A stretch of DNA of 32,000 nt from Acinetobacter sp. MD2 (GTDB taxonomy: Bacteria > Pseudomonadota > Gammaproteobacteria > Pseudomonadales > Moraxellaceae), in assembly GCF_035615575.1 (NCBI RefSeq), contig NZ_VTDK01000005.1, positions 1-32,000 of the forward strand, in the 5' to 3' direction. Below, piece after piece: positions 4,200 to 23,325 of this stretch (the first letter of the stretch is position 1; each line of letters opens with the position of its first letter). The notes under the pieces are model-generated. The model was not told where the DNA came from. It saw nothing but the letters and a program-made list of their open reading frames with translations, and did no database searches. The position numbers and the translations under genes are program-made.

Positions 4200-4203
4200 G
4201 TTT

Positions 4204-6048
4204 GTGGCATTCGCTGCATTGAGTTTAAGGTGTTGTGCTTGGTTGGGACTTGTTTTGGCAAGTCCTGTTACTTTAGCACAGCTACAAACAACGCCGTATT
4301 TGGCACTTGGTCATGCATCGCCTTTATCTTATTTAAAGGCGATGCCTTATGCGAACCCTACTGCGCCTAAAGGCGGCATATTAACGCGTGCAAGTTATGG
4401 CACTTTTGATAATTTAAATAGCATGAATGGTAAAGGTAGTGCCACCGAAGGGGTGAACTACTTATTTGATAGTTTGATGAGCAAATCATTAGACGAACCG
4501 AATATCTTTTATCCTTTGCTTGCTACTCGTGTCAGTTATGAGCCAAATCATCTCCATTTCATTATTTTTCATTTAAATCCTGCCGCACGCTTTAGTAATG
4601 GTCAGCCTTTAACTGCCGATGATGTCAAATTTAGTTTTGATACCTATCAAAAGAAATCTAATTTTGGCTTACAAATGTATTTAGCCGATCTTGCTAAAAC
4701 GGAAGTTTTATCTAAATATACAGTTAAATTTAGTTTTAAGTCGCAAAATAATCCCAAGATGCCTGCCATTGTGGCAAGTTTGCCCATTTATGCTCGGGCA
4801 GACTGGCAACATAAAGATTTTACCCGTGTCAGTTTGGCACCCATTTTAGGTTCAGGGCCTTATTTAATTGCAGGGATGGATGCAGGACGCAGCATTCGTT
4901 ATCAACGTAATCCACATTATTGGGGCAAAGATTTGCCGGTAAATAAAGGGCGTTATAATTTTGATCAGCTAATTTATCGTTATTATCGTAGTGTAGACAG
5001 TGCCTTTGAGGGCTTTAAAGTGGGGCAATATACCTTACAAGAAGAAACCGATGCTAGACGTTGGGTGACAGGCTATCATTTTCCTGCGGCCCAAGCAGGC
5101 AAAGTCGTGCAGTACCGTTTTGCACATCGTAACCCGATTATCCCACGCAGTTTTGTGTTTAATACCCGCCGTGCGCCATTAAATGACATTCGTTTACGTC
5201 AGGCCATGACCTATGCTTATGATTTTGAATGGCAAAATAAAGCCATGTTTTATGGGCAGTATCAACGGTTGCAAAGTTATTTTGCCAATAGTGAACTTGC
5301 CGCTACAGGTAAGCCGAGTGCGCTTGAGTTAAAGTGGTTGCAGCCTTGGTTAAAACAAATTGATCCGATTGCACGCCAAGGGGTGTTAAGCGATTGGCAT
5401 TATCCTGTTTCGGATGGTGATGGTTTTAATCGTCATAACCTCATTCAAGCACAGCACATTTTAAAGCAAGCGGGCTATGTGATTCGGCACAATCAATTGT
5501 TCGATCCGCATGGCAAAGCGGTTAAATTTGAGTTTTTATTGAATCAAGACGCCATGCAGCGGGTGCTGATGCCATTTGCCCGTAATTTAAAAAAACTCGG
5601 TATTCAACTTAATATTCGCATGGTAGATACCCCTCAATATATCGAGCGTATGCGCCGTTACGACTTTGATTTAAGTACGAATGATATGCCGCAAAGCCTG
5701 ACGCCAAGTCATGAGCAAGCACAGTTTTGGGGCAGTCGTGCGGCAACAGAAATAGGTAACTATAATTATGCAGGGATTCAAAATCCTGTCATTGATGCGG
5801 CAATTACTGCCATTGTTCAGGCACAAAATCGTCAGCGATTGATTTTGGCAACCCATGTTCTCGACCGTTTGTTACGGTCAGGCTATTATCAAATTTTAAC
5901 CTACGGCACAGGCGAAACATGGTATGCCTATTGGAACATGTATCGACAGCCGAGCCAAAAACCAAAACTGAGCGCAGGGATTGACTATTGGTGGTCGGAC
6001 CCAAAAGCTGCACAGCAGTTACAACAGCATGATTTAAAATCATTTTAA
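4204..6048 (+). CDS. yejA: ABC transporter periplasmic substrate-binding protein, family 5 (YejA-like peptide/microcin C type)
   Basis: GTG start and an N-terminal signal peptide. Length of about 610 aa. It sits first in a 4-gene SBP-permease-permease-double-ATPase operon, as in yejABEF. Confidence 0.8.
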   Translation: MAFAALSLRCCAWLGLVLASPVTLAQLQTTPYLALGHASPLSYLKAMPYANPTAPKGGILTRASYGTFDNLNSMNGKGSATEGVNYLFDSLMSKSLDEPNIFYPLLATRVSYEPNHLHFIIFHLNPAARFSNGQPLTADDVKFSFDTYQKKSNFGLQMYLADLAKTEVLSKYTVKFSFKSQNNPKMPAIVASLPIYARADWQHKDFTRVSLAPILGSGPYLIAGMDAGRSIRYQRNPHYWGKDLPVNKGRYNFDQLIYRYYRSVDSAFEGFKVGQYTLQEETDARRWVTGYHFPAAQAGKVVQYRFAHRNPIIPRSFVFNTRRAPLNDIRLRQAMTYAYDFEWQNKAMFYGQYQRLQSYFANSELAATGKPSALELKWLQPWLKQIDPIARQGVLSDWHYPVSDGDGFNRHNLIQAQHILKQAGYVIRHNQLFDPHGKAVKFEFLLNQDAMQRVLMPFARNLKKLGIQLNIRMVDTPQYIERMRRYDFDLSTNDMPQSLTPSHEQAQFWGSRAATEIGNYNYAGIQNPVIDAAITAIVQAQNRQRLILATHVLDRLLRSGYYQILTYGTGETWYAYWNMYRQPSQKPKLSAGIDYWWSDPKAAQQLQQHDLKSF

Positions 6049-6067
6049 TGATGAGCGTGGAGGGTAA

Positions 6068-7132
6068 ATGGGGCGTTATGTATTGAAACGGCTCGTATTG
6101 ATGTTGCCGACTCTATTTGTCATTTTATTGATTAATTTTGTGATCGTGCAAATTGCCCCAGGTGGTCCTGTCGAGCAAGCGATTTTACAGGCACAGCAGT
6201 TTCAAATTGAACCAAATCACCCGCACACAAACATGGATGATGCACAGCATTATCAAGGAGCGCAAGGTTTAAGCCCTGAAATGTTGGCTCAACTTAAAGC
6301 ACAATATGGTTTTGACCAACCCATGGATGTACGATTTTGGCAGATGCTCAAACGTTATGCTCAGTTGGATTTAGGCGAGAGCTTTTTTAAGGGCAAGGCG
6401 GTGAGTCAATTAATTTGGGAAAAACTGCCCGTTACCTTGTCGCTAGGTGGATGGAGTTTGCTGCTGATTTACCTGATTGCCATTCCATTAGGCATATATA
6501 AAGCCAAGCGGCACGGCAGTCTCTTTGATCGTACCACTTCGTTACTTTTGGCAATGGCTTATGCTGTGCCAAGTTTATTGTTTGGGGTGCTATTGCTGAC
6601 TTTATTTGCAGGGGGGAACTATTGGCATTGGTTTCCGCTACAAGGTTTAACGTCTGAAAATATTCAACACTTAAGCTTTGTTGGAAAAATAAAAGACTAT
6701 TTTTGGCATTTAACTTTACCTGTTTTGACCCTCACTTTAGGCGGTTTTGCAAGCTTAACTTATCTTACCCAAGCATCGTTTATAGAAGAAATGCACAAAA
6801 CATATGTGCTTGCTGCACGAGCCAAAGGTTTGAGCGAAACACAAGTATGGATAGGGCATATTTTTCGTAATGCCATATTGGTGGTACTTGCAAGCTTGCC
6901 TGAAACCATTGTTGGGGTATTTTTTGCAGGAACACTATTTGTGGAAATTTTATTTAATTTAGATGGCATTGCCTTGTTGGGTTTTGAGGCGGTATCTGAG
7001 CGAGATTATCCAATTATTTTTGGAATATTATTGTTGTATACCTTATTGGGTTTAATACTCAGATTAGTGGGCGATATGTTGTATCACTGGATTGACCCTC
7101 GGATTACTTTTGATTTAGAGCGAGCGCCATAA
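6068..7132 (+). CDS. yejB: ABC transporter permease (YejB-like)
   Basis: Multi-TM protein with a binding-protein-dependent transport (EAA-like) region ..YVLAARAKGLSE... GGAGGG Shine-Dalgarno upstream. Operon position. Confidence 0.85.
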   Translation: MGRYVLKRLVLMLPTLFVILLINFVIVQIAPGGPVEQAILQAQQFQIEPNHPHTNMDDAQHYQGAQGLSPEMLAQLKAQYGFDQPMDVRFWQMLKRYAQLDLGESFFKGKAVSQLIWEKLPVTLSLGGWSLLLIYLIAIPLGIYKAKRHGSLFDRTTSLLLAMAYAVPSLLFGVLLLTLFAGGNYWHWFPLQGLTSENIQHLSFVGKIKDYFWHLTLPVLTLTLGGFASLTYLTQASFIEEMHKTYVLAARAKGLSETQVWIGHIFRNAILVVLASLPETIVGVFFAGTLFVEILFNLDGIALLGFEAVSERDYPIIFGILLLYTLLGLILRLVGDMLYHWIDPRITFDLERAP

Positions 7133-8145
7133 TGTCGCGGTTATGGTCTGAACGTGTGCAACGTTTTAAGCAAAATCGTTTGGGATATTTCAGCTTGATT
7201 GTATTGGGGCTAATTTTTTTCATTTCAATGTCGGCCAAGTGGATTGCCAATGACAAACCGTTACTGGTTTATTATCAGCAGCAGTATTATTTACCTATTT
7301 TAACGTCTTACCCTGAAACGACTTTTGGGGGCGTATTTGAAACAGAAGCCGATTATAAAGACCCTGTGGTACAACGCTTAATACAAACACATGGTTGGAT
7401 GTTGTGGCCCATGATTCGCTATGCAGCCAATACGCCTAATTTGGACTTACAGCGGTCTGTACCATCACCCCCTAGCCAAGACAATTGGTTGGGCACAGAT
7501 GACCAAGGGCGTGATGTTTTGGCACGGGTATTATATGGGTTGCGTAACGCCTTGCTGTTTAGTTTTGCTTTAAGCTTAGCCTCGGCGGTTGTAGGTATTT
7601 TGGTCGGGGCGATACAAGGCTATTATGCAGGATGGATTGATTTAATTGGGCAGCGCATTTTAGAGATTTGGAGTGGTTTGCCGATGCTCTTTATTGTGAT
7701 GATTTTAGTGAGCATGTTTAGCCCAAGTATTTATTGGTTATTTGCAATCATGCTATTTTTTGGTTGGACAAGTTTGGTGAGTCTGATTCGTGCAGAGTTT
7801 TTGCGGAGTCGTCATTTAGATTATGTCCGTGCGGCGAAAGCCATAGGTGTCCCCAATTATTTGATTATTTGGCGCCATATTTTACCCAACGCTATTACCT
7901 CAAGTTTGTCACAATTGCCCTTTTTGTTGATGGCCAATATGACTGCCTTAACAGCACTCGACTTTTTAGGTTATGGTTTGCCGCCAGAAACTGCTTCGTT
8001 AGGTGAGTTGCTATTACAGGGTAAAAATAATTTAACTGCGCCGTGGTTGGCATGTGCGGGCTTTATCAGCTTAGCATTGGTGCTAGCTTTATTAATATGT
8101 GTTGGAGATGCCATTCGTGATGCCACTGATCCAAGACAACTTTAA
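7132..8145 (+). CDS. yejE: ABC transporter permease (YejE-like)
   Basis: The ATG overlaps the yejB stop (TAATG). N-terminal TM, then a periplasmic loop ..WLGTDDQGRDVLARV.. typical of OppC/DppC-type permeases, and ..YVRAAKAIGV... Confidence 0.85.
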   Translation: MSRLWSERVQRFKQNRLGYFSLIVLGLIFFISMSAKWIANDKPLLVYYQQQYYLPILTSYPETTFGGVFETEADYKDPVVQRLIQTHGWMLWPMIRYAANTPNLDLQRSVPSPPSQDNWLGTDDQGRDVLARVLYGLRNALLFSFALSLASAVVGILVGAIQGYYAGWIDLIGQRILEIWSGLPMLFIVMILVSMFSPSIYWLFAIMLFFGWTSLVSLIRAEFLRSRHLDYVRAAKAIGVPNYLIIWRHILPNAITSSLSQLPFLLMANMTALTALDFLGYGLPPETASLGELLLQGKNNLTAPWLACAGFISLALVLALLICVGDAIRDATDPRQL

Positions 8146-8173
8146 AGGTGCTTTTTGCAGGCATGAGGATGGC

Positions 8174-9730
8174 ATGCTCTTAGATGTTCAACATTTGCAA
8201 ATTCGGACTGAACAACAGCTTTTACTTGAGGATTTAAGCTTTCAACTGCGGGTAGGACAGACTTTGGCTTTTGTGGGGGAGAGTGGTTCGGGAAAATCGC
8301 TGACGCAATTGGCAATATTGGGTTTGGCCGCGAAAAATTTAAAGGTTACGGGGCAGATTGAATTTCAAGGTCAAAATTTACTTCAGTGTTCAGAACAATA
8401 TTTGCAGCAAGTTCGTGGTAAAAAGATTGCGTTAATCTTTCAAGAACCCATGAGTGCTTTAAATCCATTACATACGGTTTTGCACTTGGTTGGGGAATGC
8501 TTTTTTTTACAAGGGATGCAGCGAGATACTGTCCAACAGCGTGTTATTGCACTGCTAACTGAAGTTGAATTGGCAGATGCCCATCATTACTTAAATGCTT
8601 ATCCACATCAGCTTTCGGGTGGTCAGCGACAGCGAGTGATGATTGCTGTTGCTTTAGCGCAAGCACCTGATATTTTAATTGCCGATGAAGCCACGACTGC
8701 TTTAGATGCTCATTTGCAAATACAAGTTTTACAGCAACTTAAACGGATACAGCAACAACGCAATATGGCGCTCATTTTAATCAGTCATGATTTGGCTTTG
8801 CTACGCCATTTTGCTGATGATGTGATTGTAATGAAACAGGGGCGTGTCATAGAGCAAGGCAATCTTGAGCAGATTTTTTCACATCCCCAACACAGATATA
8901 CCCAGCAATTGTTAACATGTGATTTTGGCCAAGCTGCTGCGCTTGTACCGAATCGATTAAATTCATTGCTTGAACTTAAACAGTTAAGCATTCGTTTTGC
9001 AAAACCTCGGACAAAATTTTGGCGTAAAAAGCAGTTCAAAACGGTATTGACTGCACTCAATTTGACATTACAGCAAGGTGAGTCGATTGGCGTGATTGGT
9101 GAAAGTGGTGCAGGTAAAACATCGTTGGCTTTGGCTGTGGCGCGTTTACTACCTAGTCAGGGTGAGATTGTTTTTTTAGGGCAAAACTTAAATCAATGCC
9201 AAGAAAAAGCATTACTGGTGTATCGCCACCAATTGCAAATAGTGTTTCAAGATCCTTATAGCAGTTTAAACCCACGTTTGACAGTTGCAGAATCAATTGG
9301 GGAAGGGGTAGATCCAAGCTTAAAGCAAATAGAACGTCAACTTAAAATTGAACAGGCTGTGACTGAGGCTGAATTACCACTGTCATTATTGATGCAATAT
9401 CCACATCAACTCTCGGGTGGGCAGCGTCAGCGTGTGGTTCTCGCGCGTGCGATGATTTTAAAACCCAAGTTACTTATTTTAGATGAACCGACGTCTGCAT
9501 TAGATCGAGCGACGCAACGTGAAATTGTGTATTTATTGCGGCGTTTACAACGGCAATATCAAATGAGTTATTTGTTAATTAGTCATGATTTGGATTTGGT
9601 TCGTGCTTTATGTCAGCAGGTACTTGTGTTACATCAAGCAGAAGTCGTAGAGTTCCAAGCTACAGAGCAGCTTTTTCAATCACCTAAACATTTTTATACC
9701 CAACAACTTTTGAAAGCGAGCAGATATTAA
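8174..9730 (+). CDS. yejF: ABC transporter ATP-binding protein with two fused ABC domains (YejF-like)
   Basis: Two Walker A motifs (GESGSGKS, GESGAGKT) and two signature motifs (QLSGGQRQRV twice). I chose the ATG at 8174, preceded by GAGGA. The track ORF starts at 8099 and overlaps yejE, so the start is uncertain. Confidence 0.88.
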   Translation: MLLDVQHLQIRTEQQLLLEDLSFQLRVGQTLAFVGESGSGKSLTQLAILGLAAKNLKVTGQIEFQGQNLLQCSEQYLQQVRGKKIALIFQEPMSALNPLHTVLHLVGECFFLQGMQRDTVQQRVIALLTEVELADAHHYLNAYPHQLSGGQRQRVMIAVALAQAPDILIADEATTALDAHLQIQVLQQLKRIQQQRNMALILISHDLALLRHFADDVIVMKQGRVIEQGNLEQIFSHPQHRYTQQLLTCDFGQAAALVPNRLNSLLELKQLSIRFAKPRTKFWRKKQFKTVLTALNLTLQQGESIGVIGESGAGKTSLALAVARLLPSQGEIVFLGQNLNQCQEKALLVYRHQLQIVFQDPYSSLNPRLTVAESIGEGVDPSLKQIERQLKIEQAVTEAELPLSLLMQYPHQLSGGQRQRVVLARAMILKPKLLILDEPTSALDRATQREIVYLLRRLQRQYQMSYLLISHDLDLVRALCQQVLVLHQAEVVEFQATEQLFQSPKHFYTQQLLKASRY

Positions 9731-9911
9731 TTTTTACTGTTGTGATTATTATCGTCTTTCATGTGTTGTTTTGTGATTTAAATCAATATTTATGGTGTGA
9801 TTGTATTATTTTTTATATAAATAACAAATGCATAACAATTAAATCTTAAAAAAATAATATAAAAAATTTAATATTAAGCACTCTACTTGATTGTTTAGGA
9901 AATTATTTTTC

Positions 9912-11132
9912 ATGTTGAATCTTGCACGCGTTTATTCTACAGGAATGGTGTTAGGCGCCAGTATTTTTATGATTCAAACTGCTTCTGCAGCAGACACACG
10001 TACAGTAAAGGAACCTGTAATTCCAAGCGCATGTACTATTTTGAAGGCAACAGGCGCAGATGCGACTCAAGTTATTCAAAAAGCGCTTAATGGTTGTTCG
10101 AGTGGTCAAGCGGTGAAATTAGTTGCCAATGGTTCGCAAGGTAATTTTTACTCAGGCGCTTTGGTTATTCCAACAGGGGTAAGTTTGTGGATTGATCAAG
10201 GTGCAACCTTACATGCATTAAATAAAGCCAGTGCTTTTGACAATGGTAGTGGAACTTGTGGGACTTTAGACACGAAGGGGAATGGTTGTTCTGCACTCAT
10301 TACCATGAATAGCGCAACTAATTCAGGTATTTATGGTTTAGGGACGATTGACGGACAAGGTGGTGCAACTTTAAGCGATAAGAACGTAAGTTGGTGGACG
10401 TTGGCACAACAAGCCAAAACTGCGGGAAGCAAGCAAAATGCACCGCGTTTAATCCAAATTAATAAAGGGAAAAATATTACGTTATATAAAATTACGTTAA
10501 AAAATTCACCAAACTTTCATGTGGTATTTAAACAAGGTGATGGCTTAACAGCATGGGGTGTAACCATTAATACGCCAAGTACAGCACGTAATACCGATGG
10601 TATTGATCCAATTTCATCTAAAAACGTGACTGTTGCACATAGTTATATTAGTACTGGCGATGATAATGTCGCAATTAAAGCCAATGCTGGTGCTGGTTCA
10701 TCAAGCTATATGAGCTTTATTGATAATAATTTTGGTGCGGGGCATGGCTTATCTATTGGTAGTGAAACGACAGATGGTGTTTATAATATTGATGTAAATG
10801 GTTTGACTTTAAATGGTACAACCAATGGTTTGCGTATTAAGAGTGATGCATCAGCTTCGGGTGAAGTTGCGAATGTGAACTATAATACGGTGACCATGAC
10901 CAATGTTGCAAATGCATTGATGATGGATACCATTTATGAGAAGAAATCAGGAAGTACCAAAGCGAATTGGCACGATGTGAGCTATAACAATATTACGGTG
11001 AATGGCAAATCTAAGTTCATTTTTAATGGAACGAATGCTTCAAAGCCATTAGCTGCAACCATGCGTAATATGCATTTGTCTAATGCAAATATTACGTGGA
11101 CCAAAGTGAATGCGAATATTTTGCAATATTAA
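9912..11132 (+). CDS. Secreted glycoside hydrolase family 28 (polygalacturonase-like) right-handed beta-helix protein
   Basis: Signal peptide ..FMIQTASA/AD. The four classical GH28 motifs occur in order: NTDGIDP, GDDNVAIK, GHGLSIGSE and RIKS. An alternative TTG start lies at 9891. Confidence 0.8.
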   Translation: MLNLARVYSTGMVLGASIFMIQTASAADTRTVKEPVIPSACTILKATGADATQVIQKALNGCSSGQAVKLVANGSQGNFYSGALVIPTGVSLWIDQGATLHALNKASAFDNGSGTCGTLDTKGNGCSALITMNSATNSGIYGLGTIDGQGGATLSDKNVSWWTLAQQAKTAGSKQNAPRLIQINKGKNITLYKITLKNSPNFHVVFKQGDGLTAWGVTINTPSTARNTDGIDPISSKNVTVAHSYISTGDDNVAIKANAGAGSSSYMSFIDNNFGAGHGLSIGSETTDGVYNIDVNGLTLNGTTNGLRIKSDASASGEVANVNYNTVTMTNVANALMMDTIYEKKSGSTKANWHDVSYNNITVNGKSKFIFNGTNASKPLAATMRNMHLSNANITWTKVNANILQY

Positions 11133-11201: not shown

Positions 11202-11233
11202 TTGTGATAGGTGGTGATTAAGTATTTGAGTCA

Positions 11234-11266
11234 TAAAAAAATCCCAACTATTGCTAGTTGGGATTT
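11234..11266 (-). terminator. Rho-independent terminator that originally followed the tRNA-Glu operon, now separated from it by the prophage
   Basis: 9-bp stem atcccaact/agttgggat. On the minus strand it is followed by T7. It lies immediately 3' of the displaced tRNA-Glu fragment. Confidence 0.65.
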
Positions 11267-11274
11267 TTCGAATT

Positions 11275-11321
11275 TGGCGTCCCTACGGGGATTCGAACCC
11301 CGGTTACCGCCGTGAAAGGGG
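11275..11321 (-). repeat. Displaced 3' fragment of tRNA-Glu, the 46-bp att core and left prophage junction
   Basis: TGGCGTCCCTACGGGGATTCGAACCCCGGTTACCGCCGTGAAAGGG is identical to 19380-19425 of the intact tRNA-Glu. Identity stops in the anticodon stem-loop. Coordinates are +/-1. Confidence 0.9.
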
Positions 11322-11335
11322 GCTTGCCCCCTTTC

Positions 11336-12190
11336 TTATTCTTTTTGTAAACTTTTGTAATCTTGCGTTAAAACAGGCAAAACATTTAAGCAATCGTGTA
11401 AATTTTCGGGTGCTAAATGGGCATAACGCTGGGTGATTCTTACATCGCTATGACCTAATAATTGCGACACATGGTAAAGCGGAACAGCTTGTTTTATCAA
11501 AAAGCTTGCAAATGTATGTCTCAAATCGTGAATTCTCACATCGCCAATCTCTGATCTATCAACAGCATTCTTAAAACCTTTGTAAAAGCTTTTGATGTTT
11601 GTATTGGTTTTTTCATTATAAAACACATATTTCTTATGGTTTTTTAACCTAAAAAGGGCATGTATTGATGTGTCATTCAGTGGCTTATAAATCGTCTTTT
11701 TGTTTTTTGATAATGAATTGCGAATGATGAAATATTTTTCATTAATGAAAACATTATCCCATGTGAGCGTGAGCAACTCTCCAGATCGACAGCCCGTGTT
11801 TAATAGCAGCAATATGTAATCATGCAATGCCTGATTGCCATATCGTTTTGAACACTGGAGAAGCTTGGTGCATTCAGAAGCATTTAAAAAGCGTGGAATA
11901 AAATCTTGCTCGAAAAGCTTAAAACCATTAAAAGCATTTTTAAAATTTGCTGTATGTTTGTGTTTTAAATAATAGTTCATTGCAGATTTTATGACATGCA
12001 ATTCTCTATTTATTGTTGAATTTTTAACACCATCTAACTGCCTAAGCGTGCAATATTCATTGATGATTTCAATTGTAATCTCGTCAAAAGCATAAAAAAA
12101 TTCCAAATTTTGGAATTTTTCTTGATAACCATGCTTGGATTGAAACAAACCATTTTTGGCATAAAACTGCATTATTTCCCTAACATTCAT
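11336..12190 (-). CDS. int: Tyrosine recombinase / phage integrase (small, XerC/D-like)
   Basis: Catalytic signature R (..TGCRSGELL..), HxxR (IHDLRHTFAS), H (LLGHSD) and Y (TQRYAHL). It abuts the att core. Confidence 0.9.
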   Translation of the reverse strand: MNVREIMQFYAKNGLFQSKHGYQEKFQNLEFFYAFDEITIEIINEYCTLRQLDGVKNSTINRELHVIKSAMNYYLKHKHTANFKNAFNGFKLFEQDFIPRFLNASECTKLLQCSKRYGNQALHDYILLLLNTGCRSGELLTLTWDNVFINEKYFIIRNSLSKNKKTIYKPLNDTSIHALFRLKNHKKYVFYNEKTNTNIKSFYKGFKNAVDRSEIGDVRIHDLRHTFASFLIKQAVPLYHVSQLLGHSDVRITQRYAHLAPENLHDCLNVLPVLTQDYKSLQKE

Positions 12191-12229
12191 GTGTCACCCA
12201 AAAACAAGAGCAAAAGCAAAGGCAACATC

Positions 12230-12418
12230 TTGGGGCGTTGCCCCAAACCCCATGAGGGGGATAATCCCCCTCAACCCTTAAAACTGTTCACAGTTTTATC
12301 AATCGGGAAATGAGCGCAGAAGCGCACATTTCCTCTTGATAAGTGTGTTTCTATTTATGCGCTGATCAATATGTTTTCCGATAAGCCGAGGCGCTACGCG
12401 CCCCGTTTAGTCGGAAAA
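12230..12418. other. Cluster of five stable stem-loops in the 450-bp non-coding region between int and zot. Candidate inovirus origin or packaging-signal region.
   Basis: H1 12230-12246 (tggggc/gcccca). H2 12254-12272 (gaggggga/tccccctc). H3 12279-12298 (aaaactg/cagtttt). H4 12306-12333 (12-bp stem, 1 mismatch). H5 12374-12418 (ttttccga/tcggaaaa enclosing ggcgc/gcgcc). Confidence 0.5.
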
Positions 12419-12639
12419 ATATTGACAGTGTATTAGGCATTGCGAACTCAAATAAAAAGCAAAAAGAATTGTAACAGACTGAAATACATTGTTTATAAAG
12501 CAAAAACTCATGTTTTCAAAAAACAAACATCGCTCAAAACGCACAGATTTGCGTTTTAAGCGATGTTTATATAAAGACATACAAACACCAAGGCACACAC
12601 GATAAAACGCAAATTTGACAATAGCTAAAATTTATGCTT

Positions 12640-14088
12640 CTAAACGCTAGGTTTTGTAATGTCCTTTTCAGGAAATGTTGAAGTGTTTTCTACAACACGA
12701 ACATTTGATTGATTTAAATTATTGTCAGTATTAGACGTTTGATTAGAAACCAGAGTGGTATTAGTAGCATTAGAGCTATGAGAGCGAAAATAGTCATAAG
12801 GGCGGTCTCCAGCCATAATTTTTTTACAATCGTTTTGTGAAACTTTTAGTTTTGTTCCTTGTTCCGTATAAGCGGTGTATTGTCCGTTATATTTAACGCA
12901 TCCTGCAAAAACGGGTTTGTTGACGACTGTGTACTGTATTGTGTTTGCAATATTTGAATCATCAAAAGGCTTGCTAGGATTATAAGACACACTATTAACT
13001 TGGGCATTTTGTTGCACTCCAACCGAGGCACCGCTTTTTGATAACTGATCAAACCATTGTTTGCACTCAGGTTTGTCTAGATTTTCTGCATGCCTACATT
13101 TATCAGCTAATTGCTGATTTTGATTGTTCGATGCAATCGTTTTAATTGTTTGTTGGTTAGCACTGGAGAGCTGCTGCACATGCTCTTTTTCTGTTTTGTT
13201 AATTTCTCTCTTATCATTCAGACCCCATAAAAGCATAATTGCAGCACAACCAACAAAAAGGGCAAGGGGAATTAAACCCGCAGGCAAGCGTTTTTGGTGT
13301 GTATTAATTGTTGTCGATTTATACAGCTTGAAAATACGGTCTTGTGGTTTAAATGAAAACTTAGATTCGCAGTTGAGCTTATTAATAAGCGTGTTTGGGT
13401 ATTGTCTTGTTGAACCGAATTGATAAACCTTTGGTGTACGTCCGTAGGGCCGTGTGATGTGATAATGCACACCAATCAATTCTTTGACTGTAGGATGTAA
13501 AAAAGATGGTGACTGCGTAATAAAATAAAAGTCAAAACCTCGGTGACGATGGACTGTTAAGTCTTGAACGATGTCATCCTTCTTTTTTGTATCTGAATAA
13601 GGTTCAACAAGTTGAACCTCATCAATAACGAATATTGAACCATCTGGCGCTTCTCTCCAGTCTTTAATTAATGCCCTTGTGTAATCAATTTTTAAAGCGT
13701 TAATGTTGGAGTAGATTGTTCTTACATCTTGAAGATATTCAAACTTTTGTTTGCCTTCTCTCTCATTAATGCGCTCAATAATTTCATTGTATTGTGTTGA
13801 GCGTTGAAAATAAAAGTCGGGGCGCAAATCATCAAAATCTTGTGTCAAAAAGTCAAAATAGTCATTCGGCAATACTTGCAAATGTATTTTTAGCTCATGC
13901 GCTGAACCTGTTTCAATCTCAAGATAGCCAAAATCAGAACGATATATTTCAAACAATGGCATATTGTGAGCATAAACAACTTTATTTTTCTGCAAATGCA
14001 CTTTGTTTTTGCGCTCAATTTCATCAAGCTTTGTAACAACAAAAGCGGTTTTGCTTGCACCTGGAACACCCGTGACTAAATGTAACAT
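12640..14088 (-). CDS. zot: Zot / pI-like assembly ATPase (zonula occludens toxin family), with an N-terminal P-loop domain, one TM and a C-terminal domain
   Basis: N-terminus MLHLVTGVPGASKTAF (Walker A). Walker B-like ..IFVIDEVQ... TM LIPLALFVGCAAIMLLWGL near aa 270. It is the last gene of the morphogenesis block. Confidence 0.88.
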   Translation of the reverse strand: MLHLVTGVPGASKTAFVVTKLDEIERKNKVHLQKNKVVYAHNMPLFEIYRSDFGYLEIETGSAHELKIHLQVLPNDYFDFLTQDFDDLRPDFYFQRSTQYNEIIERINEREGKQKFEYLQDVRTIYSNINALKIDYTRALIKDWREAPDGSIFVIDEVQLVEPYSDTKKKDDIVQDLTVHRHRGFDFYFITQSPSFLHPTVKELIGVHYHITRPYGRTPKVYQFGSTRQYPNTLINKLNCESKFSFKPQDRIFKLYKSTTINTHQKRLPAGLIPLALFVGCAAIMLLWGLNDKREINKTEKEHVQQLSSANQQTIKTIASNNQNQQLADKCRHAENLDKPECKQWFDQLSKSGASVGVQQNAQVNSVSYNPSKPFDDSNIANTIQYTVVNKPVFAGCVKYNGQYTAYTEQGTKLKVSQNDCKKIMAGDRPYDYFRSHSSNATNTTLVSNQTSNTDNNLNQSNVRVVENTSTFPEKDITKPSV

Positions 14089-14155
14089 TTTTTGATTTCT
14101 CCTTTGGCGCTGCTATGGTCGCTCGTCGAAGCTCCTCGCTCCCTAGCGCAGCGCC

Positions 14156-14431
14156 TTATTTTTTTCTTAAAACGAGTTTTGAAATGTTGGCTTGATGCTT
14201 AGCGACCATTGCGCCAAGAATGAGCGAAAAAAAGATGTCGAATCCCGACAAACCCATAAGCTGCATTAGTGCAGATGGAATAGAGTTGGCTGTTTGCTCA
14301 AAATAGTTAATTGCTTGATGCAAAGCGACTAATGTGACTCCAGTGGTTCCAAGTGCAACGCCTGCACCCTCCAATACATTTTTGAGAAAACCCTTTTGAG
14401 TGCTTTTTAAGATCGTAGCTAAATTAATCAT
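14156..14431 (-). CDS. Small membrane protein, a pVI-like minor coat candidate
   Basis: 91 aa with two hydrophobic segments. It sits between the pIII-like gene and zot, as in CTXphi/Pf-type inoviruses. The call is positional only. Confidence 0.5.
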   Translation of the reverse strand: MINLATILKSTQKGFLKNVLEGAGVALGTTGVTLVALHQAINYFEQTANSIPSALMQLMGLSGFDIFFSLILGAMVAKHQANISKLVLRKK

Positions 14432-15719
14432 CTGTTGTTCGAACCCCGCCTAAAATTAAAGCAGCGATAAAAGCACCCATTGCAATAAGAACAGGTCGCA
14501 CATAAGTCGAGAGAATTGTGCAAAAGTCTGTAAATTCAAACTTCCAGTCAATATCTATATCTGCAATTTGACCACTTGCTAATTGAATTGATGCAGGGCA
14601 TTGACCGCTAAAATTGAGATTAGGCGCTTCTTGGTTATCATCCTCTTGTTTTATATCAAGCTCATCGTCTGATGAATCAGGTTCGCCCTTAAAATAGTCA
14701 ACTGCATCGTTGTATGCAGCTTTAATGCCATCAGCCCACTGGACGGGTTTTTGTATAATTACTTGCATGGCTTCACATACAGACGGCATCCATCCACAGG
14801 CAGCAGGTATATCAGTCGTAGATGTTGATGTTGTTGTGCCGTCGGCATTGGTTTTTGTATCTGTTTTTGTGTCAGCGGTCGTATCACTCGGATATGTTGC
14901 TGTATTATCTAATTGCGTGACAATTGGTTTTGCTTTTGTATCGTCTTTTTCAGCATCTTGAACAATATCAGCAGCTACAGCACGAACTAATGCCTGTGCA
15001 TCTGCATCACCTGCTTTGGCTTTATCTAAAACTTGTTGCGCAACATCTGAAAGCGGTCTTGTTTTTGTTTCATTTTGATTATTTGCTTCAGTTTCGTCAT
15101 AATTTGGATTGATAATCACATTTAAAGCTGCACCGATATTGCCATTATAATTATTTGACCCCCCCATCAACTTGCAGTAATCATCTTCGAAATAAACAGT
15201 GGGAGATATTGAACCAAAACCCCTTGTATCAAATGCTGAACATGCAGCAGAACCCGAACTATAGAATTTTCCGTCATATTTATACAAATATTGAGCATAT
15301 CTACAATCTAAACCATTTTGATTACATGTTGTTGAAGCAACTTTCGGCTTATATTGAACAGTATTATTTGCAGGATCTAAAACGTAATCAACACCATTCA
15401 ACAAGCCATCTAATACAGTCGTCACTACAGCAGCAGCACCGACACGGCCAATGAATTTTGCAATATCTGCCGCCACTGGAGCAATTGTAGCTGTACCAGT
15501 TACAACTTTGTTTGCACCATTTATCAAAACATTTCTAACACCGTCATAAACAACAGTAGCACCGTGAGAAACAGGGTTTGATAAAGACCATGTAGAACCT
15601 GCAAGAGAAGCAGATGCGTTTTTAACAAATATGAATTGAGAAACAATAAGCATTGCAACGAGCAAAAAGACATTTGTTCGATGTATTAAAAGACTTTTAG
15701 AATTGCCCATGTTGCGCAT
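14424..15719 (-). CDS. pIII-like minor coat / receptor-binding protein candidate
   Basis: Signal peptide ..IFVKNASA. Thr/Asp-rich linker (TADTKTDTKTNADGTTTSTSTTD). C-terminal TM anchor VLIAMGAFIAALILGGV. It overlaps the next gene by 8 nt. The ATG at 15719 follows GGTGAT, whereas the track start is a TTG at 15743. Confidence 0.55.
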   Translation of the reverse strand: MRNMGNSKSLLIHRTNVFLLVAMLIVSQFIFVKNASASLAGSTWSLSNPVSHGATVVYDGVRNVLINGANKVVTGTATIAPVAADIAKFIGRVGAAAVVTTVLDGLLNGVDYVLDPANNTVQYKPKVASTTCNQNGLDCRYAQYLYKYDGKFYSSGSAACSAFDTRGFGSISPTVYFEDDYCKLMGGSNNYNGNIGAALNVIINPNYDETEANNQNETKTRPLSDVAQQVLDKAKAGDADAQALVRAVAADIVQDAEKDDTKAKPIVTQLDNTATYPSDTTADTKTDTKTNADGTTTSTSTTDIPAACGWMPSVCEAMQVIIQKPVQWADGIKAAYNDAVDYFKGEPDSSDDELDIKQEDDNQEAPNLNFSGQCPASIQLASGQIADIDIDWKFEFTDFCTILSTYVRPVLIAMGAFIAALILGGVRTTDD

Positions 15720-15816
15720 ATCATCACCAATATTGGTATCCAATTTAAGACAGAAGCCGATTCGATCATTTCAGAACCTCAAAGAAGAAGCCCCCCATCA
15801 CTGGAGGGCATTCGCA

Positions 15817-16101
15817 TTAAGCAGAGTTTGCACCGCGTTTTGTATAACGCCATGCTACAAACAAGCCTAAAACGACAAGCGCAGCAGCAAAGATGATTTT
15901 CACGTTAGAGCTAACAGACTGTAAGCCCGTTTGGAATGCTGTTACATCAAGTGATGAATCACCATCCGCAGCATGTGCAGAACCAATCGTTAATGCTGTT
16001 ACAGTTGCAGCAGCACCGACTTTGGCATAATTGTTGTCAAGAATTTGTTTAACACGAGCTAAACGACTTTTTTTTGATTCATAAACAGCTAATTGATTCA
16101 T
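15817..16101 (-). CDS. Major coat protein (pVIII-like) precursor candidate
   Basis: Leader ending ..GSAHA/ADGD. Acidic N-terminus of the mature part, a hydrophobic core IIFAAALVVLGLFVAW and a basic C-terminus RYTKRG, which is the layout of inovirus major coat proteins. Confidence 0.6.
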   Translation of the reverse strand: MNQLAVYESKKSRLARVKQILDNNYAKVGAAATVTALTIGSAHAADGDSSLDVTAFQTGLQSVSSNVKIIFAAALVVLGLFVAWRYTKRGANSA

Positions 16102-16126
16102 AAGAATCTCCTTTCAGGTTGGTTTT

Positions 16127-16327
16127 TTACAGCAGTTTTGCTGCCTTTCCGACAGCGACAAAGCCAATAAACAGAACGCAGATTTTTGAAAATTCAACAT
16201 AAAGAACTTTTGCTTGCGCTCCAGTAATCGCTATTGATTTAAATAAATCGGGTTCAGTGTAAATAGCCCATTGAACACACGTCTGGACGTTGTCTATTGT
16301 TTGTAAAACCTCACAGACGTATGCCAT
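16127..16327 (-). CDS. Small hydrophobic phage protein of unknown function (possible minor coat)
   Basis: 66 aa with a C-terminal TM ICVLFIGFVAVG followed by KAAK. Tight spacing within the operon. Confidence 0.45.
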   Translation of the reverse strand: MAYVCEVLQTIDNVQTCVQWAIYTEPDLFKSIAITGAQAKVLYVEFSKICVLFIGFVAVGKAAKLL

Positions 16328-16331
16328 TTCT

Positions 16332-16523
16332 TTAATTCCTAATTGTTTCGAGCATTCCCGCAGTAAAACCGCGGCGATACTCTGCTAAAAATTCGCGCAT
16401 TAATTCATTCGAGTTGTCGACTAAATCAATGATGTCTTGTTCCAATGGCACATCATTCGTGTATTTTCCAAATGCAAAGCCCTTGGCAAATGCAGCGTCT
16501 TGAACGCGCTGTAGTTCACTCAT
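16332..16523 (-). CDS. Small soluble phage protein, unknown function
   Basis: 63 aa. 4-nt ATGA-type overlap with the upstream gene. No recognisable motif. Confidence 0.4.
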   Translation of the reverse strand: MSELQRVQDAAFAKGFAFGKYTNDVPLEQDIIDLVDNSNELMREFLAEYRRGFTAGMLETIRN

Positions 16524-16810
16524 TTTTGAGCCGTTGTAATTGGCTGAACATCGTGAATAATTGTGGTTTGACGAGAACCTGTAGTCACAATTTCAAGCAC
16601 GATTTTGGCGTTGAATGGAAAATTCAAATCCTGAATTTTTTTAATGTTTTCTGACGAACCCCATTTGTATTCAACAGTTGCTTTGCCAAATCCACTTTGT
16701 TCAGCAAGATCTGTCATAACAAAGACTTTGGTGAAATCGTGCTTAACGCCATCAATCGCGTTGTTATAGTGTTTAGCACCAGTAATCACAGCTTCAGTTG
16801 TAAATTTCAT
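16520..16810 (-). CDS. Candidate ssDNA-binding protein (pV/RstB position)
   Basis: 96 aa, immediately downstream of the replication initiator, with a good RBS context. Assignment is by position only. Confidence 0.4.
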   Translation of the reverse strand: MKFTTEAVITGAKHYNNAIDGVKHDFTKVFVMTDLAEQSGFGKATVEYKWGSSENIKKIQDLNFPFNAKIVLEIVTTGSRQTTIIHDVQPITTAQK

Positions 16811-16849
16811 GTTGTATTTCCTTTTAATAGCCTAAGTTAGAACCTTGTC

Positions 16850-18178
16850 CTATGCTGGCAATGGCATAGGGGGCATGGATTTTGAGTAATCAAGGTAGAG
16901 CGGTTTTAATCGGTCTGGATAGTCATATTTGTCATGTGTCAGAATGTCTAAAAGCAAAGCATCATCTTCATAGAATGATCTGAATGCAGATAGGTATTTA
17001 CCGAACTGGTGACGTGTGACCGAAATGGCTTTTTCCCATGTAATTTCGGCAGTCTTTTTGATTGTTTCAAATTTCAAAGGCTGCATTTGATTGTCAAATG
17101 TATGAAAGCATGGATATGCTGCTAGAAAGTGCTGTGAGGGATGAAGCAAAGCATCTAGTGGGATGTGAAAATCCTTGCCTTTATATTCAACTTCAACACG
17201 TACCCAAGGCGATTCTTTACAACCAAGTTGTTTGCCTTTTTCATAAATACGACAGAATTTTGATGATTTTCGATTGCCAATATATGCAGTAGTGCCACTG
17301 CCATCAGGTTGCCAATAGTCACCAATAATATTGAACTGGGGAGGGCGACCACCACTTTGGAATCCTTTTAATTCGAATTGTTCCTTGGCCCATTGAACAT
17401 TTGCAATTTGACCGTCGTGATCATCAAATGCGTAATCAATACGTGTGATTTTGGGGCGATCTGCAAATAAGCATAACCAAGCATGCAAATCTGCTTCCCA
17501 TCCATAATATCCAAGGGTACAGCCGACACCAGTGATGCTAATTAGCATTGTGTCACGTTGTGAATCACCACCAACGCAGATAAATCCACAACCATTTTCA
17601 AGCTTGTAAGCTTCTTTATAGTGGTTAATACCACCATTCATTTTGCATTCGATACCGAATCCGAATATGTCTTTAATCACAGTGCCCATTGCATAAGCAT
17701 AATCTGAATCAGACACGTAACAATCGGGTAGGTTTAAATGCTCATAACCTTTTAATTTTTCTCTTTTCATTGAGCTAAATGTAGATTTATTCAATGTAAA
17801 ATTGAGCCAATCTGTTACTGCAACCTCACAATGTGCAGGTCGTCTGAATAAAACAGGTTTTTCACCATCGTCAGTTAAGACCATTTGTGTGTCTAAAAGC
17901 GGGTAATCACGGTATTCTTCTTTTAGTGCAAGCTTGATTTCTTCAATTTCTTTTTCAAATTTTCCAACAATAACGGCTTTTTCTTCACTATCACTGGTGT
18001 GAATCATTTGCTCGATATAGCTTTTGCGTATCCGAGTTAACGCACGGTTTGCTGATTCCAACTTTTCCCCCGTATTACTAAGGGGGTTAACTCCAGCCCA
18101 TTCAAATACCTTTCCCCACAGTGGCAATGTGGAGAAAGTCCCATTTGTATGTAATGAATTAGTAGCCATAACGGTCAT
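16850..18178 (-). CDS. Rolling-circle replication initiation protein, Rep_trans (pII/RstA-like) family
   Basis: Motifs ..ITRIDYAFDDHDG.. and ..AYIGNRKSSKFCRIYEKGKQLG..WVRVEVEYK.., as I recall for RstA/Rep_trans proteins. Size of 442 aa. Confidence 0.75.
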   Translation of the reverse strand: MTVMATNSLHTNGTFSTLPLWGKVFEWAGVNPLSNTGEKLESANRALTRIRKSYIEQMIHTSDSEEKAVIVGKFEKEIEEIKLALKEEYRDYPLLDTQMVLTDDGEKPVLFRRPAHCEVAVTDWLNFTLNKSTFSSMKREKLKGYEHLNLPDCYVSDSDYAYAMGTVIKDIFGFGIECKMNGGINHYKEAYKLENGCGFICVGGDSQRDTMLISITGVGCTLGYYGWEADLHAWLCLFADRPKITRIDYAFDDHDGQIANVQWAKEQFELKGFQSGGRPPQFNIIGDYWQPDGSGTTAYIGNRKSSKFCRIYEKGKQLGCKESPWVRVEVEYKGKDFHIPLDALLHPSQHFLAAYPCFHTFDNQMQPLKFETIKKTAEITWEKAISVTRHQFGKYLSAFRSFYEDDALLLDILTHDKYDYPDRLKPLYLDYSKSMPPMPLPA

Positions 18179-18407
18179 CTCCTAATTCAGAGAGAAGGTC
18201 TTTACATTTTTGATCTTCTGTTAATAGGTCGTCGGCTAAAGCTGTAATGATTGATGATTCAATGCTTTGGGTTTTTAAATATTCTTCAAGATAAACTAAT
18301 AGTGATGCTGTATAAGTGCATGGGTTTCCCCCAGCTAAGGTTTCAACACCATCAGCATGAATTTTTTTTGCTATTTCTTCATAGCATTTTAATTCTAAAT
18401 CTTTCAT
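18159..18407 (-). CDS. Small acidic phage protein, unknown function, first gene of the leftward operon
   Basis: 82 aa. Its 3' end overlaps the rep start by 20 nt. No recognisable motif. Confidence 0.45.
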   Translation of the reverse strand: MKDLELKCYEEIAKKIHADGVETLAGGNPCTYTASLLVYLEEYLKTQSIESSIITALADDLLTEDQKCKDLLSELGDDRYGY

Positions 18408-18553
18408 TTTTGGGGTTCCTTAGTTTTCTGGGCGTTCCCTTCGGGCGGGCTTGTCGGTAAACTCAAGCCAAAACGATGAAGCTGTTTTGTCTTGCCCCTT
18501 CGGGCGACATCCCTAACGCAAAAGCAAAAGCAGCACGAATAGAGAAAATGTGA

Positions 18554-19003
18554 ATGAGCAAAATATTTTTATTATTGATGGGCATATTTATTGGTTTTTT
18601 GATGGGGAGAAGCTCAGTCAAACAAGTCAAAGAGCAAGAACCCAAAAAACCAACTAGACGTGCATTCACGTATAGCCAAAGGCAATACTTAAAAGTGATG
18701 TATGCATCGGATGCAGATCGAATCAGAGAGCTAAATCTTTTATCGGCAAATGACAGCATTTTTTTAAGATTGCTAAAGCAAGAATTCTCGAATAAAGATG
18801 TCGTAGTAAAAGACAAACGATTCTTTATTGTTGATGGTGAGAAATTTCCAATAGCGATTTTTGAATACAGAGATGGAGTGCAAGGGATGAGAACAATGAC
18901 CATCGAAGATGGTTTACCTTTGTTTTTATACAAAGGCATACTTTCAAGCGAAAAGATACGTGAAGATGCAAAGCTCATTGATGAGCAGTATCTACGCAAA
19001 TAA
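18554..19003 (+). CDS. Orphan membrane-anchored protein of unknown function (prophage accessory gene)
   Basis: N-terminal TM IFLLLMGIFIGFLMG, then a K/E/D-rich 120-aa domain. Purine-rich first codon positions favour this strand over the antisense 184-aa ORF. Several AGA/ATA codons. Confidence 0.55.
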   Translation: MSKIFLLLMGIFIGFLMGRSSVKQVKEQEPKKPTRRAFTYSQRQYLKVMYASDADRIRELNLLSANDSIFLRLLKQEFSNKDVVVKDKRFFIVDGEKFPIAIFEYRDGVQGMRTMTIEDGLPLFLYKGILSSEKIREDAKLIDEQYLRK

Positions 19004-19027
19004 GTATTCTCTTTCATAAAAAGCCCC

Positions 19028-19121
19028 TTGATTTTTTACTCCATGAACTTTATGTTCAGGAGTAATAAATACCCCAAATGGATAATTATCCTTTTGGGTA
19101 AATTAATACTCCATTTGGGGT
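19028..19121 (+). promoter_or_regulatory. Putative promoter and operator region of the prophage XRE regulator
   Basis: TTGATT (19028-19033), 17 nt, TATGTT (19051-19056). Inverted repeat 19036-19065 overlaps the promoter. A perfect 12-bp inverted repeat accccaaatgga (19071-19082) / tccatttggggt (19110-19121) has a third related copy, ccttttggg, at 19090. Confidence 0.4.
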
Positions 19122-19139
19122 AAGTCAAGAGGTGAGAAT

Positions 19140-19436
19140 ATGTGCAAAGAGTTGGTTGATCTAATAGATCGTGCAAGATGGAAACTAGGAAGCTACAAAA
19201 ACGTAGCTGAAAAAATGGGAATTAGTGCAGGAAGATTATCTGATTTTAAACATGGAACACGTGTGCCGTCGACACTAAATATTTGTCAACTTGCTGATAT
19301 TGCGGAATTAAATGTTGCAGAAACGCTATTCCAAATAATGGAAAAGCTCGACATTGAAAATGCCGAGCTTTACCGAATGTGGCGTCCCTACGGGGATTCG
19401 AACCCCGGTTACCGCCGTGAAAGGGCGATGTCCTAG
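19140..19436 (+). CDS. XRE/Cro-CI-type helix-turn-helix regulator of the prophage. Its 3' end is read from the tRNA-Glu att core.
   Basis: GAGGTGA Shine-Dalgarno. HTH segment ..YKNVAEKMGISAGRLSDFKHGTRVPS... The last 19 codons (WRPYGDSNPGYRRERAMS*) lie antisense inside the tRNA gene. Confidence 0.7.
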   Translation: MCKELVDLIDRARWKLGSYKNVAEKMGISAGRLSDFKHGTRVPSTLNICQLADIAELNVAETLFQIMEKLDIENAELYRMWRPYGDSNPGYRRERAMS

Positions 19437-19455
19437 GCCTCTAGACGATAGGGAC
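19380..19455 (-). tRNA. tRNA-Glu (anticodon UUC), copy 1, the integration target
   Basis: The reverse complement GTCCCTATCGTCTAGAGGCCTAGGACATCGCCCTTTCACGGCGGTAACCGGGGTTCGAATCCCCGTAGGGACGCCA folds as a 76-nt cloverleaf. Anticodon loop is CTTTCAC, and it is close to E. coli tRNA-Glu. Confidence 0.95.
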
Positions 19456-19481: not shown

Positions 19482-19557
19482 TGGCGTCCCTACGGGGATT
19501 CGAACCCCGGTTACCGCCGTGAAAGGGCGATGTCCTAGGCCTCTAGACGATAGGGAC
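19482..19557 (-). tRNA. tRNA-Glu (UUC), copy 2, identical to copy 1 with a 26-bp spacer
   Basis: Identical 76-nt sequence read directly. Confidence 0.95.
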
Positions 19558-23249: not shown

Positions 23250-23325
23250 TGGCGTCCCTACGGGGATTCGAACCCCGGTTACCGCCGTGAAAGGGCGATG
23301 TCCTAGGCCTCTAGACGATAGGGAC
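23250..23325 (-). tRNA. tRNA-Glu (UUC), copy 3, identical to copies 1 and 2
   Basis: Identical 76-nt sequence, located 20 nt downstream of the rnt stop on the same strand. Confidence 0.95.

Follow-up and report, generated by a model that had tools for sequence, protein, structure and literature searches.

A probable integrase-encoding filamentous prophage in a tRNA-Glu gene of Acinetobacter sp. MD2, with a regulator gene that reads across its attachment site

Inoviruses of the integrase type that target tRNA genes are exemplified by the Pf4/Pf1-like phages of Pseudomonas, and the absence of a secretin gene is common in autonomous inoviruses (CTXphi, Pf, MDAphi). The subject of this work is an 8.1-kb element at positions 11275-19425 of a 32,000-nucleotide stretch of DNA from Acinetobacter sp. 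MD2 (contig NZ_VTDK01000005.1, positions 1 to 32,000; hereafter the window), which is very probably a complete-looking temperate filamentous phage (Tubulavirales, Inoviridae sensu lato) of the nectar/pollen/bee clade of Acinetobacter. CTXphi of Vibrio shares with the element a Rep_trans-type initiator (RstA), Zot, a divergently transcribed repressor and, as would hold here, the use of a host secretin; unlike the element, it integrates at dif through the host recombinases XerCD. The MDAphi/Nf phages of Neisseria possess a TspB-type adsorption protein, as the element does, and a transposase, which sets them apart from it. To our knowledge, neither CTXphi nor the Neisseria phages have an attachment (att) site in a tRNA gene or a tyrosine integrase of their own.

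Direct repeats in tRNA genes served as an att-site criterion in Roux et al. 2019 (582 prophages, PMC6813254), and integrase-encoding inoviruses have been noted in gamma-proteobacteria (PMC12715192). Integrase-type, tRNA-targeting, secretin-less inoviruses are already a recognised class and the element belongs there, sharing with it an integrase of its own, att repeats in a tRNA and chronic-infection genes without a secretin. Its lineage differs from the rest of that class in being specific to Acinetobacter and to tRNA-Glu, in having no recognisable excisionase (Xis) or recombination directionality factor (RDF), and in joining Rep_trans, a small integrase of XerC/D size and an XRE gene that spans the phage attachment site attP.

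The filamentous phages of Acinetobacter baumannii (Af1 and groups A-J, PMC11209303; M02, OQ693633) have in common with the element the host genus, the lack of a secretin and the gene order, i.e., Rep, an open reading frame (ORF) in the position of the single-stranded DNA (ssDNA)-binding protein (SSB), small ORFs, coat, the TspB-like CoaA/pIII, a DUF2523 protein and Zot. The Zot and pIII proteins of M02 are 35% and 29% identical to those of the element, whereas its Rep shows no detectable similarity and it has no homologue of the 149-aa gene described below (o149). Af phages have been described with a transposase, or with use of host XerCD and tandem arrays, and the words 'integrase' and 'tRNA' are absent from that account (PMC11209303); the integrase-type tRNA-Glu lineage therefore adds to what is described for the genus. 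The best catalogued match of the morphogenesis module is Dulem virus 65 (PP511900, lemur saliva virome; Zot 51%, pVI 44%), and that of the replication module is the IMG/VR entry UViG 2537562058_000001 (L001 among our comparison loci; Rep 41%, the 96-aa protein o96 30%). Both are without integrase, XRE-att arrangement and o149, and since each matches one module only, they show a mosaic make-up.

The closest described counterpart of the XRE-attP arrangement is found in mycobacteriophages. In BPs and Brujita, attP is part of the rep gene, and a degradation tag is lost upon integration (PMC3694055). BPs, Brujita and Charlie (PMC3694055, PMC4557955) share with the element an attP in the coding sequence of a regulator, C-termini that differ between the two states and a shorter prophage form. 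In the mycobacteriophages, rep and int are co-directional and the function of the proteolysis tag of the viral form has been shown, whereas here XRE and int are convergent, the tail is antisense to int and carries no obvious tag, and an inovirus of a Gram-negative host is concerned.

Insertion site, empty sites and circular relatives

Profile matches, att repeats and an empty site in relatives all agree on an inovirus prophage with its own integrase, as had been proposed in an earlier reading made from the letters of the window (the sequence-only reading). The features of the insertion site are as follows.

11234-11266, minus strand: host terminator hairpin of the tRNA-Glu operon, moved 8.1 kb off its tRNA (homology to empty-site loci)
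11275-11320, minus strand: attL core, a 46-nt copy of the 3' part of tRNA-Glu (same as 19380-19425)
19343-19371, minus strand: phage-borne terminator-like hairpin directly 3' of the reconstituted tRNA-Glu (sequence)
19380-19455, minus strand: promoter-distal tRNA-Glu(UUC), whose 3' 46 nt (19380-19425) are the attR core (ARAGORN, Rfam)
19482-19557, minus strand: promoter-proximal tRNA-Glu(UUC) of the tandem pair, not altered by the insertion (ARAGORN, Rfam)

A repeat search and direct reading showed that 11275-11320 and 19380-19425 are identical over exactly 46 nt, from the CCA end to just beyond the anticodon loop, and that the identity ends at 11321 (G versus C). An exact repeat of this length is impossible by chance in 32 kb and represents a fourth, partial tRNA-Glu copy. 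The sequence-only reading had recognised the repeat as a copy of the 3' part of tRNA-Glu, with a left-hand copy (11275-11321) that was one base too long, and it had rightly placed the insertion in the promoter-distal member of the pair. The tRNA-Glu at attR is intact and scores equal to the other tRNA-Glu copies. The predicted attP joins position 19379 to the core and then to 11321 (...ACCGAATG, 46-nt core, GGCTTGCC...), and in the predicted restored bacterial site, attB, tRNA-Glu is followed by AATTCGAAAAATCCCAAC.... The window holds a third complete tRNA-Glu(UUC) at 23250-23325 (ARAGORN, Rfam); the three genes are identical, lie within 4 kb and are each a potential attB for this phage family, and only one of them, the distal member of the tandem pair, is occupied.

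The empty form of the site was found in related species. Seven nectar/pollen/bee Acinetobacter, including A. nectaris, A. pollinis, A. apis and A. boissieri, were recovered in a genome scan with the flanking hydrolase (62-82% protein identity), and all seven have the tandem tRNA-Glu pair. In four loci (L002, L005, L006, L008) the second tRNA-Glu is directly followed by a terminator homologous to window positions 11229-11274, which is the empty-site arrangement that the sequence-only reading had expected, here in other species at about 70-82% nucleotide identity. About 1.7 kb beyond the tRNA and terminator, L002 has the GH28 gene that adjoins attL in the window. The empty sites in these species indicate that the 8.1 kb are an insertion. 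Exact-protein look-ups of the hydrolase, Zot, the permease and o149 for empty or occupied sites in the same species returned no record.

Relatives of the element are already present, unannotated, in IMG/VR and NCBI, and several of them hold the junction expected of an excised form. The 8.1-kb contig L038 is circular, with ends that overlap by 30 nt and share the Zot gene between them; in it, XRE, the identical 46-nt core and int are contiguous and the arms are homologous to window positions 19379 and 11321. The circular junction thus occurs in relatives just as had been predicted, and was not seen for this element itself. L039-L042 also hold attP-type junctions, and in two public assemblies (L011 and L012; Int 87%, Rep 84%, o96 89% and o149 84% identical) both contig ends fall within the same tRNA core. 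L042 (ENA ERZ1305919, 15.6 kb) contains two related phage genomes in tandem, with 97.3% identity at an offset of 7630 nt. The two copies appear to differ in that one carries an o149 homologue of 150 aa and the other a 103-aa ORF, and the internal junction between them is of attP type with a long-form XRE. Such a tandem means that attP-type junctions need not always represent free circles.

The close similarity of L011 and L012 does not extend to the morphogenesis genes. Zot, pIII and pVI are only 31-42% identical in L011/L012 and have their best matches in other genomes; Zot identity is 32-42% in L011/L012 versus 61% in L038 and 58% in L042. Judged by these identities, the element is a modular mosaic in which the lysogeny and replication module is conserved among relatives and the morphogenesis module is exchanged.

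The phage-borne hairpin at 19343-19371 consists of 13 pairs followed by a T-rich tail and is laid out like the native terminators of other species; it falls within the coding sequence of the XRE C-terminus. A deliberate phage mimic of the host terminator 3' of attR was considered and set aside, as the equivalent stretch is degenerate in L011/L012 and codes for the XRE C-terminus. Owing to this degeneracy, the role of the hairpin is uncertain.

Genes of the element

The unit, which at 8.1 kb is within the 5-15 kb of a compact filamentous phage genome, comprises ten consecutive ORFs on the minus strand followed by two on the plus strand, all twelve uninterrupted, in the set and orientation that had been described before. 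Eleven of these ORFs and the main non-coding region are listed here.

11336-12190, minus strand: tyrosine integrase, 284 aa, of XerC/D-like two-domain size (PF00589 1.8e-29, 103 bits; phrog_1 4.6e-49)
12191-12639, minus strand: intergenic region with four or five strong hairpins (ssDNA folding)
12640-14088, minus strand: pI/Zot-like morphogenesis ATPase, 482 aa (PF05707 3.4e-13, 49.9 bits, cut-off 20.3; phrog_197 4.3e-58)
14156-14431, minus strand: pVI-like minor coat protein, DUF2523 (PF10734 3.5e-10, 40.7 bits, cut-off 22.1; phrog_1242 2.8e-15)
14424-15743, minus strand: pIII-like adsorption protein with a TspB-type C-terminus (phrog_7568 1.9e-65; NF041109 VF_TspB_C_term 2.8e-7, above cut-off)
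15817-16101, minus strand: candidate major coat protein (pVIII-like), 94 aa (weak profile matches and sequence features)
16127-16327, minus strand: small ORF with a hydrophobic tail, 66 aa, candidate minor coat protein in the pVII/pIX position (phrog_13391 1.5e-5)
16332-16523, minus strand: 63-aa ORF kept in close relatives (62-64% identity in L011-L013)
16520-16810, minus strand: o96, candidate ssDNA-binding protein (pV analogue), 96 aa (phrog_4994 4.4e-22; predicted OB fold)
16850-18178, minus strand: rolling-circle replication initiator (Rep_trans), 442 aa (PF02486 3.4e-24, 86 bits, cut-off 29.6; phrog_453 1.3e-77)
18159-18407, minus strand: o82, acidic ORF of 82 aa, first gene of the leftward operon (synteny)
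18554-19003, plus strand: o149, membrane-anchored protein of 149 aa, family phrog_23897 (phrog_23897 1.8e-46)

Profile searches bear out the integrase, Zot and Rep_trans assignments of the sequence-only reading. The integrase also matches the XerD, XerC and XerA models, all below their cut-offs; the catalytic residues R...HxxR...H...Y are present, and the motifs GCRSGE, HDLRHT, LGHSD and RYAHL are readable in the translation. Zot/pI has the Walker A motif GVPGASKT and an internal hydrophobic segment. The candidate coat protein was matched by Phage_Coat_B at 0.013 and 16 bits, below the cut-off of 23.5, and by phrog_2374 at 8e-5. Its layout includes a signal-peptide-like N-terminus ending in AHA, an acidic part, a hydrophobic core and a basic C-terminus, and genes syntenic to it in L013 and L039 match PF05356. 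Homologues of the 66-aa ORF occupy the same position in L009, L015-L017 and L038. No ORF of the element matched a secretin family in the profile searches, in agreement with the earlier observation that no pIV-type secretin is encoded; because the element supplies none, virion extrusion would use a secretin of the host.

In the replication module, a structure of o96 modelled with AF2 from 28 homologues is all-beta (pLDDT 89), and its top 50 Foldseek matches in the PDB are almost all SSB, PriB, RPA or other OB-fold proteins, with probabilities of 0.8-1.0 and TM-scores of 0.36-0.61 at E-values of only 7e-3 to 8e-2 (none <= 0.001). An OB-fold model with SSB and PriB among its top matches supports the pV placement given to this ORF by position. 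No family match was obtained for o82 in the profile searches; it lies at the same position in L011-L014, L020 and L038-L042, with 28-51% identity.

The gap between int and zot had been read as a non-coding region of about 450 bp rich in hairpins, and folding agrees. As ssDNA, its 449 nt fold at -84.3 kcal/mol (z = -8.2), none of 100 shuffled sequences folds as well, and it includes a perfect hairpin with 19-nt arms at 12525-12568; the gap between o82 and o149 (18400-18560) is not unusually structured (z = -0.4). The int-zot region is a candidate packaging signal and/or complementary-strand origin. At the same place, L011 (1226-1534, 102 aa) and L012 (1249-1485, 78 aa) have extra ORFs for small membrane proteins that are unrelated to each other. 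The gap appears to be a variable cargo site, in which the window has hairpins only.

The first of the two rightward genes, o149, had been taken for an orphan; it belongs to phrog_23897 and has 124 homologous clusters, every named source of which is Acinetobacter. The gene was present in 26 of the 30 related inovirus-sized loci examined, its family occurs in 23 IMG/VR contigs of 4.8-11.6 kb as well as in L011-L014 and L042, and it is absent from L038-L041. Wherever both were detected, it points rightward, on the strand opposite to the Rep operon. A tblastn search against GenBank phages gave no match. At the protein level, both o149 and o96 agree 100% with entries from Acinetobacter sp. MD2. The AF2 model (pLDDT 88) has one N-terminal transmembrane helix and an alpha/beta domain, with no PDB or BFVD fold match at E <= 0.001. 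A conserved D...E-Y-R suggested a degenerate PD-(D/E)xK or DUF2726-like nuclease; this idea was dropped, the TM-scores being below 0.4 and the PDB and BFVD searches without a match at that threshold. As a guess, o149 may have an inovirus-specific function at the membrane level, e.g., superinfection exclusion.

A chromosomal homologue of o149 was found in A. boissieri ANC 4422 (L008 12783-13286, minus strand; 69% amino acid identity over 123 residues). It lies 1.6 kb downstream of the tandem tRNA-Glu pair, oriented as o149 is in the window, with no other phage gene nearby, and is flanked by a GATase/DUF2726-like pair and by an MltD-like LysM gene that is syntenic with window positions 948-4199. 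This copy is probably a prophage remnant. The view of o149 as a captured host gene was rejected, given that 26 inovirus-sized loci carry a member of the family and that in A. boissieri, too, the gene is next to this tRNA-Glu and keeps its orientation.

Outside the element, the GH28 polygalacturonase gene (9891-11132, plus strand; Pfam 1e-63) adjoins attL. The genes upstream of it (948-9730, plus strand) include those of an ABC transporter of the oligopeptide type and of an MltD-like protein that contains eight LysM repeats. The GH28 gene is in keeping with the pollen/nectar clade of Acinetobacter indicated by the flanking genes.

The XRE regulator gene and the attachment site

The second rightward gene lies at the right-hand end of the element, and the features that concern it are given below.

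11314-11335, plus strand: GC-rich hairpin and T-run across the core end and the phage arm (sequence)
19059-19122, no strand: candidate operator region (inverted exact 13-mers)
19140-19436, plus strand: XRE/Cro-CI-type helix-turn-helix (HTH) regulator, prophage form of 98 aa (phrog_638 2e-12; weak HTH_3 match)

The sequence-only reading had identified this gene as an XRE regulator, with which the phrog_638 match (2e-12) agrees, and had missed that its ORF has no stop before the att core and reads through attR into the tRNA. Trp80 of XRE is encoded by the TGG complementary to the CCA end of the tRNA, and the core is read in antisense by codons 80-95 and by the first base of codon 96. In the prophage, the stop codon is supplied by the host tRNA sequence past the core, which gives a protein of 98 aa ending in ...RRERAMS. 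In the reconstructed circle (19379, core, 11321) the ORF encodes 133 aa, with 38 extra residues (GLAPFLILFVNFCNLAL...) antisense to the 3' end of int.

The open reading into the core is shared by the XRE genes of the window, L011, L012, L038-L042 and a lineage at tRNA-Arg (L018/L021), none of which has a stop before the core; the L020 contig stops just before the core, with the ORF open up to that point. Homologues retrieved from the database with the 133-aa form as query fall into two classes. The short class (95-98 aa ending in RRERAMS) occurs on contigs reaching 0.15-2.9 Mb, and the long class (about twenty clusters of 130-165 aa, with tails) only on contigs of <= 15.6 kb. The tRNA-Arg members form a sister lineage (L018 4410-4714, L021 8472-8756) whose XRE is 57-68% identical and whose Int is only 40% identical. 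They are integrated at tRNA-Arg(CCG), and there too the XRE ORF enters the 3' end of the tRNA in antisense (...LWEKW-CARRGSNP...).

Upstream of XRE, the 13-mer TACCCCAAATGGA is present in two inverted copies (19070-19082 and 19110-19122) around a degenerate third one (19089-19101). The cluster ends 18 nt before the XRE start, and the two exact 13-mers are the only copies in the window; they are plausible XRE operators.

In the circular form, XRE and int converge on the hairpin at 11314-11335, which resembles a terminator when read on the XRE strand. Hairpins with different stem sequences occupy this position in L020, L038 and L039, and none is present in L011/L012, L040 and L041. Of nine distinct junction sequences, four (five of the ten loci, L011 and L012 sharing one sequence) have a terminator-like hairpin inside the long XRE ORF, for which reason a universal terminator at this place was rejected. 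The hairpin would end the episomal transcript before the stop codon of the long ORF and could yield a non-stop mRNA in some lineages.

Mode of life, alternative explanations and meaning

In the proposed mode of life, the 284-aa integrase would recombine attP with the second tRNA-Glu(UUC) gene over the 46 identical nt that the phage core shares with the 3' part of this gene, with a crossover probably in the region of the anticodon loop, and the phage copy of the core would regenerate an intact tRNA. The leftward operon, in the order o82, Rep_trans, OB-fold SSB, two small ORFs, coat, TspB-type pIII, pVI and Zot/pI, would direct rolling-circle ssDNA replication and then extrusion through a host secretin, and the packaging signal or the complementary-strand origin would lie in the 449-nt hairpin region. 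The rightward XRE gene, with palindromic putative operators just upstream, may decide whether the prophage stays silent or enters chronic production.

Several points weigh against reading the locus as a complete temperate phage. The empty-site and circular alleles come from relatives and none from this exact element or species; no excisionase was recognisable in the element; and the coat protein is a candidate named from weak matches and sequence features. The nearest deposited phages are distant (Zot <= 51%, Rep <= 37% in GenBank phages), so that function is extrapolated from the family level; a megablast of the element against GenBank phages matched the tRNA only, and a viral-contig scan with Rep gave no match. 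The element might accordingly be a cryptic, immobile remnant whose genes look intact and which neither excises nor forms virions. Such a remnant would fit the lack of direct excision evidence for this copy and of an excisionase in the profile searches, and the apparent decayed remnant in A. boissieri, reduced to the o149 homologue at the same tRNA locus, indicates that decay at this site does happen. We nevertheless regard a remnant as unlikely: the 46-nt repeats are perfect, the twelve ORFs are open and match in length those of relatives that occur as circles, and the catalytic residues of Int are intact. It is very unlikely that the element is an integrative plasmid or a phage satellite with borrowed inovirus genes. 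Relatives have been assembled as small plasmid-like circles, one of them labelled 'plasmid', and no secretin is encoded; the morphogenesis set is nevertheless full and in canonical order (Zot/pI, pVI-, pIII- and coat-like proteins, small hydrophobic ORFs) and accompanied by SSB and Rep, and many autonomous inoviruses do without a secretin as well.

The overlap of XRE with the att core is somewhat more plausibly a by-product of genome compaction, with a regulator that works the same at 98 or 133 aa, than anything else. When the int 3' end was resampled with synonymous codons, the 38-codon antisense tail of the window, L011 and L012 was reproduced in two thirds of cases (P about 0.67), which is as expected for a by-product; no ssrA-like motif was found at the ends of the XRE tails, and the hairpin inside the long ORF is missing in several lineages. 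A by-product accounts less well for the fact that all sequenced homologues, long or short, read into the core without a prior stop, including the tRNA-Arg(CCG) lineage with its distant Int. Moreover, the same resampling seldom yields tails as long as the 62 codons of L020, L038 and L039 (P 0.003-0.015), and the tails contain a hydrophobic stretch of transmembrane grade (Kyte-Doolittle 1.4-2.0 over 17 residues). Selection for an open antisense tail is not indicated in the lineage of the window and may act in the lineages with 62-codon tails. Because the tests of functional meaning were mixed, we keep a regulatory role of the XRE-attP overlap as a hypothesis of rather low probability and do not present it as a finding. 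On this hypothesis, which we hold only tentatively, XRE would sense integration: the hydrophobic tail of 35-62 aa in the episomal or tandem-junction form would be swapped for the three residues AMS and a host stop codon, and this exchange would set silent lysogeny against chronic virion production. A full-text literature search found no paper that ties integration-dependent immunity to inoviruses beyond one passing mention.

As a prophage, the element represents a lineage found in many species of Acinetobacter, with relatives that exist as free circles. It offers two leads, the XRE-attP overlap and the o149 family. The latter is well populated and confidently folded, and belongs to a very small genome in which each gene likely matters. 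The XRE-attP overlap, if functional, would extend to filamentous phages and to Gram-negative hosts, for the first time, an integration-dependent switch known only from mycobacteriophages. A difference in behaviour between the 98- and 133-aa forms would account for the way in which a non-lytic phage decides for silence or for chronic shedding.

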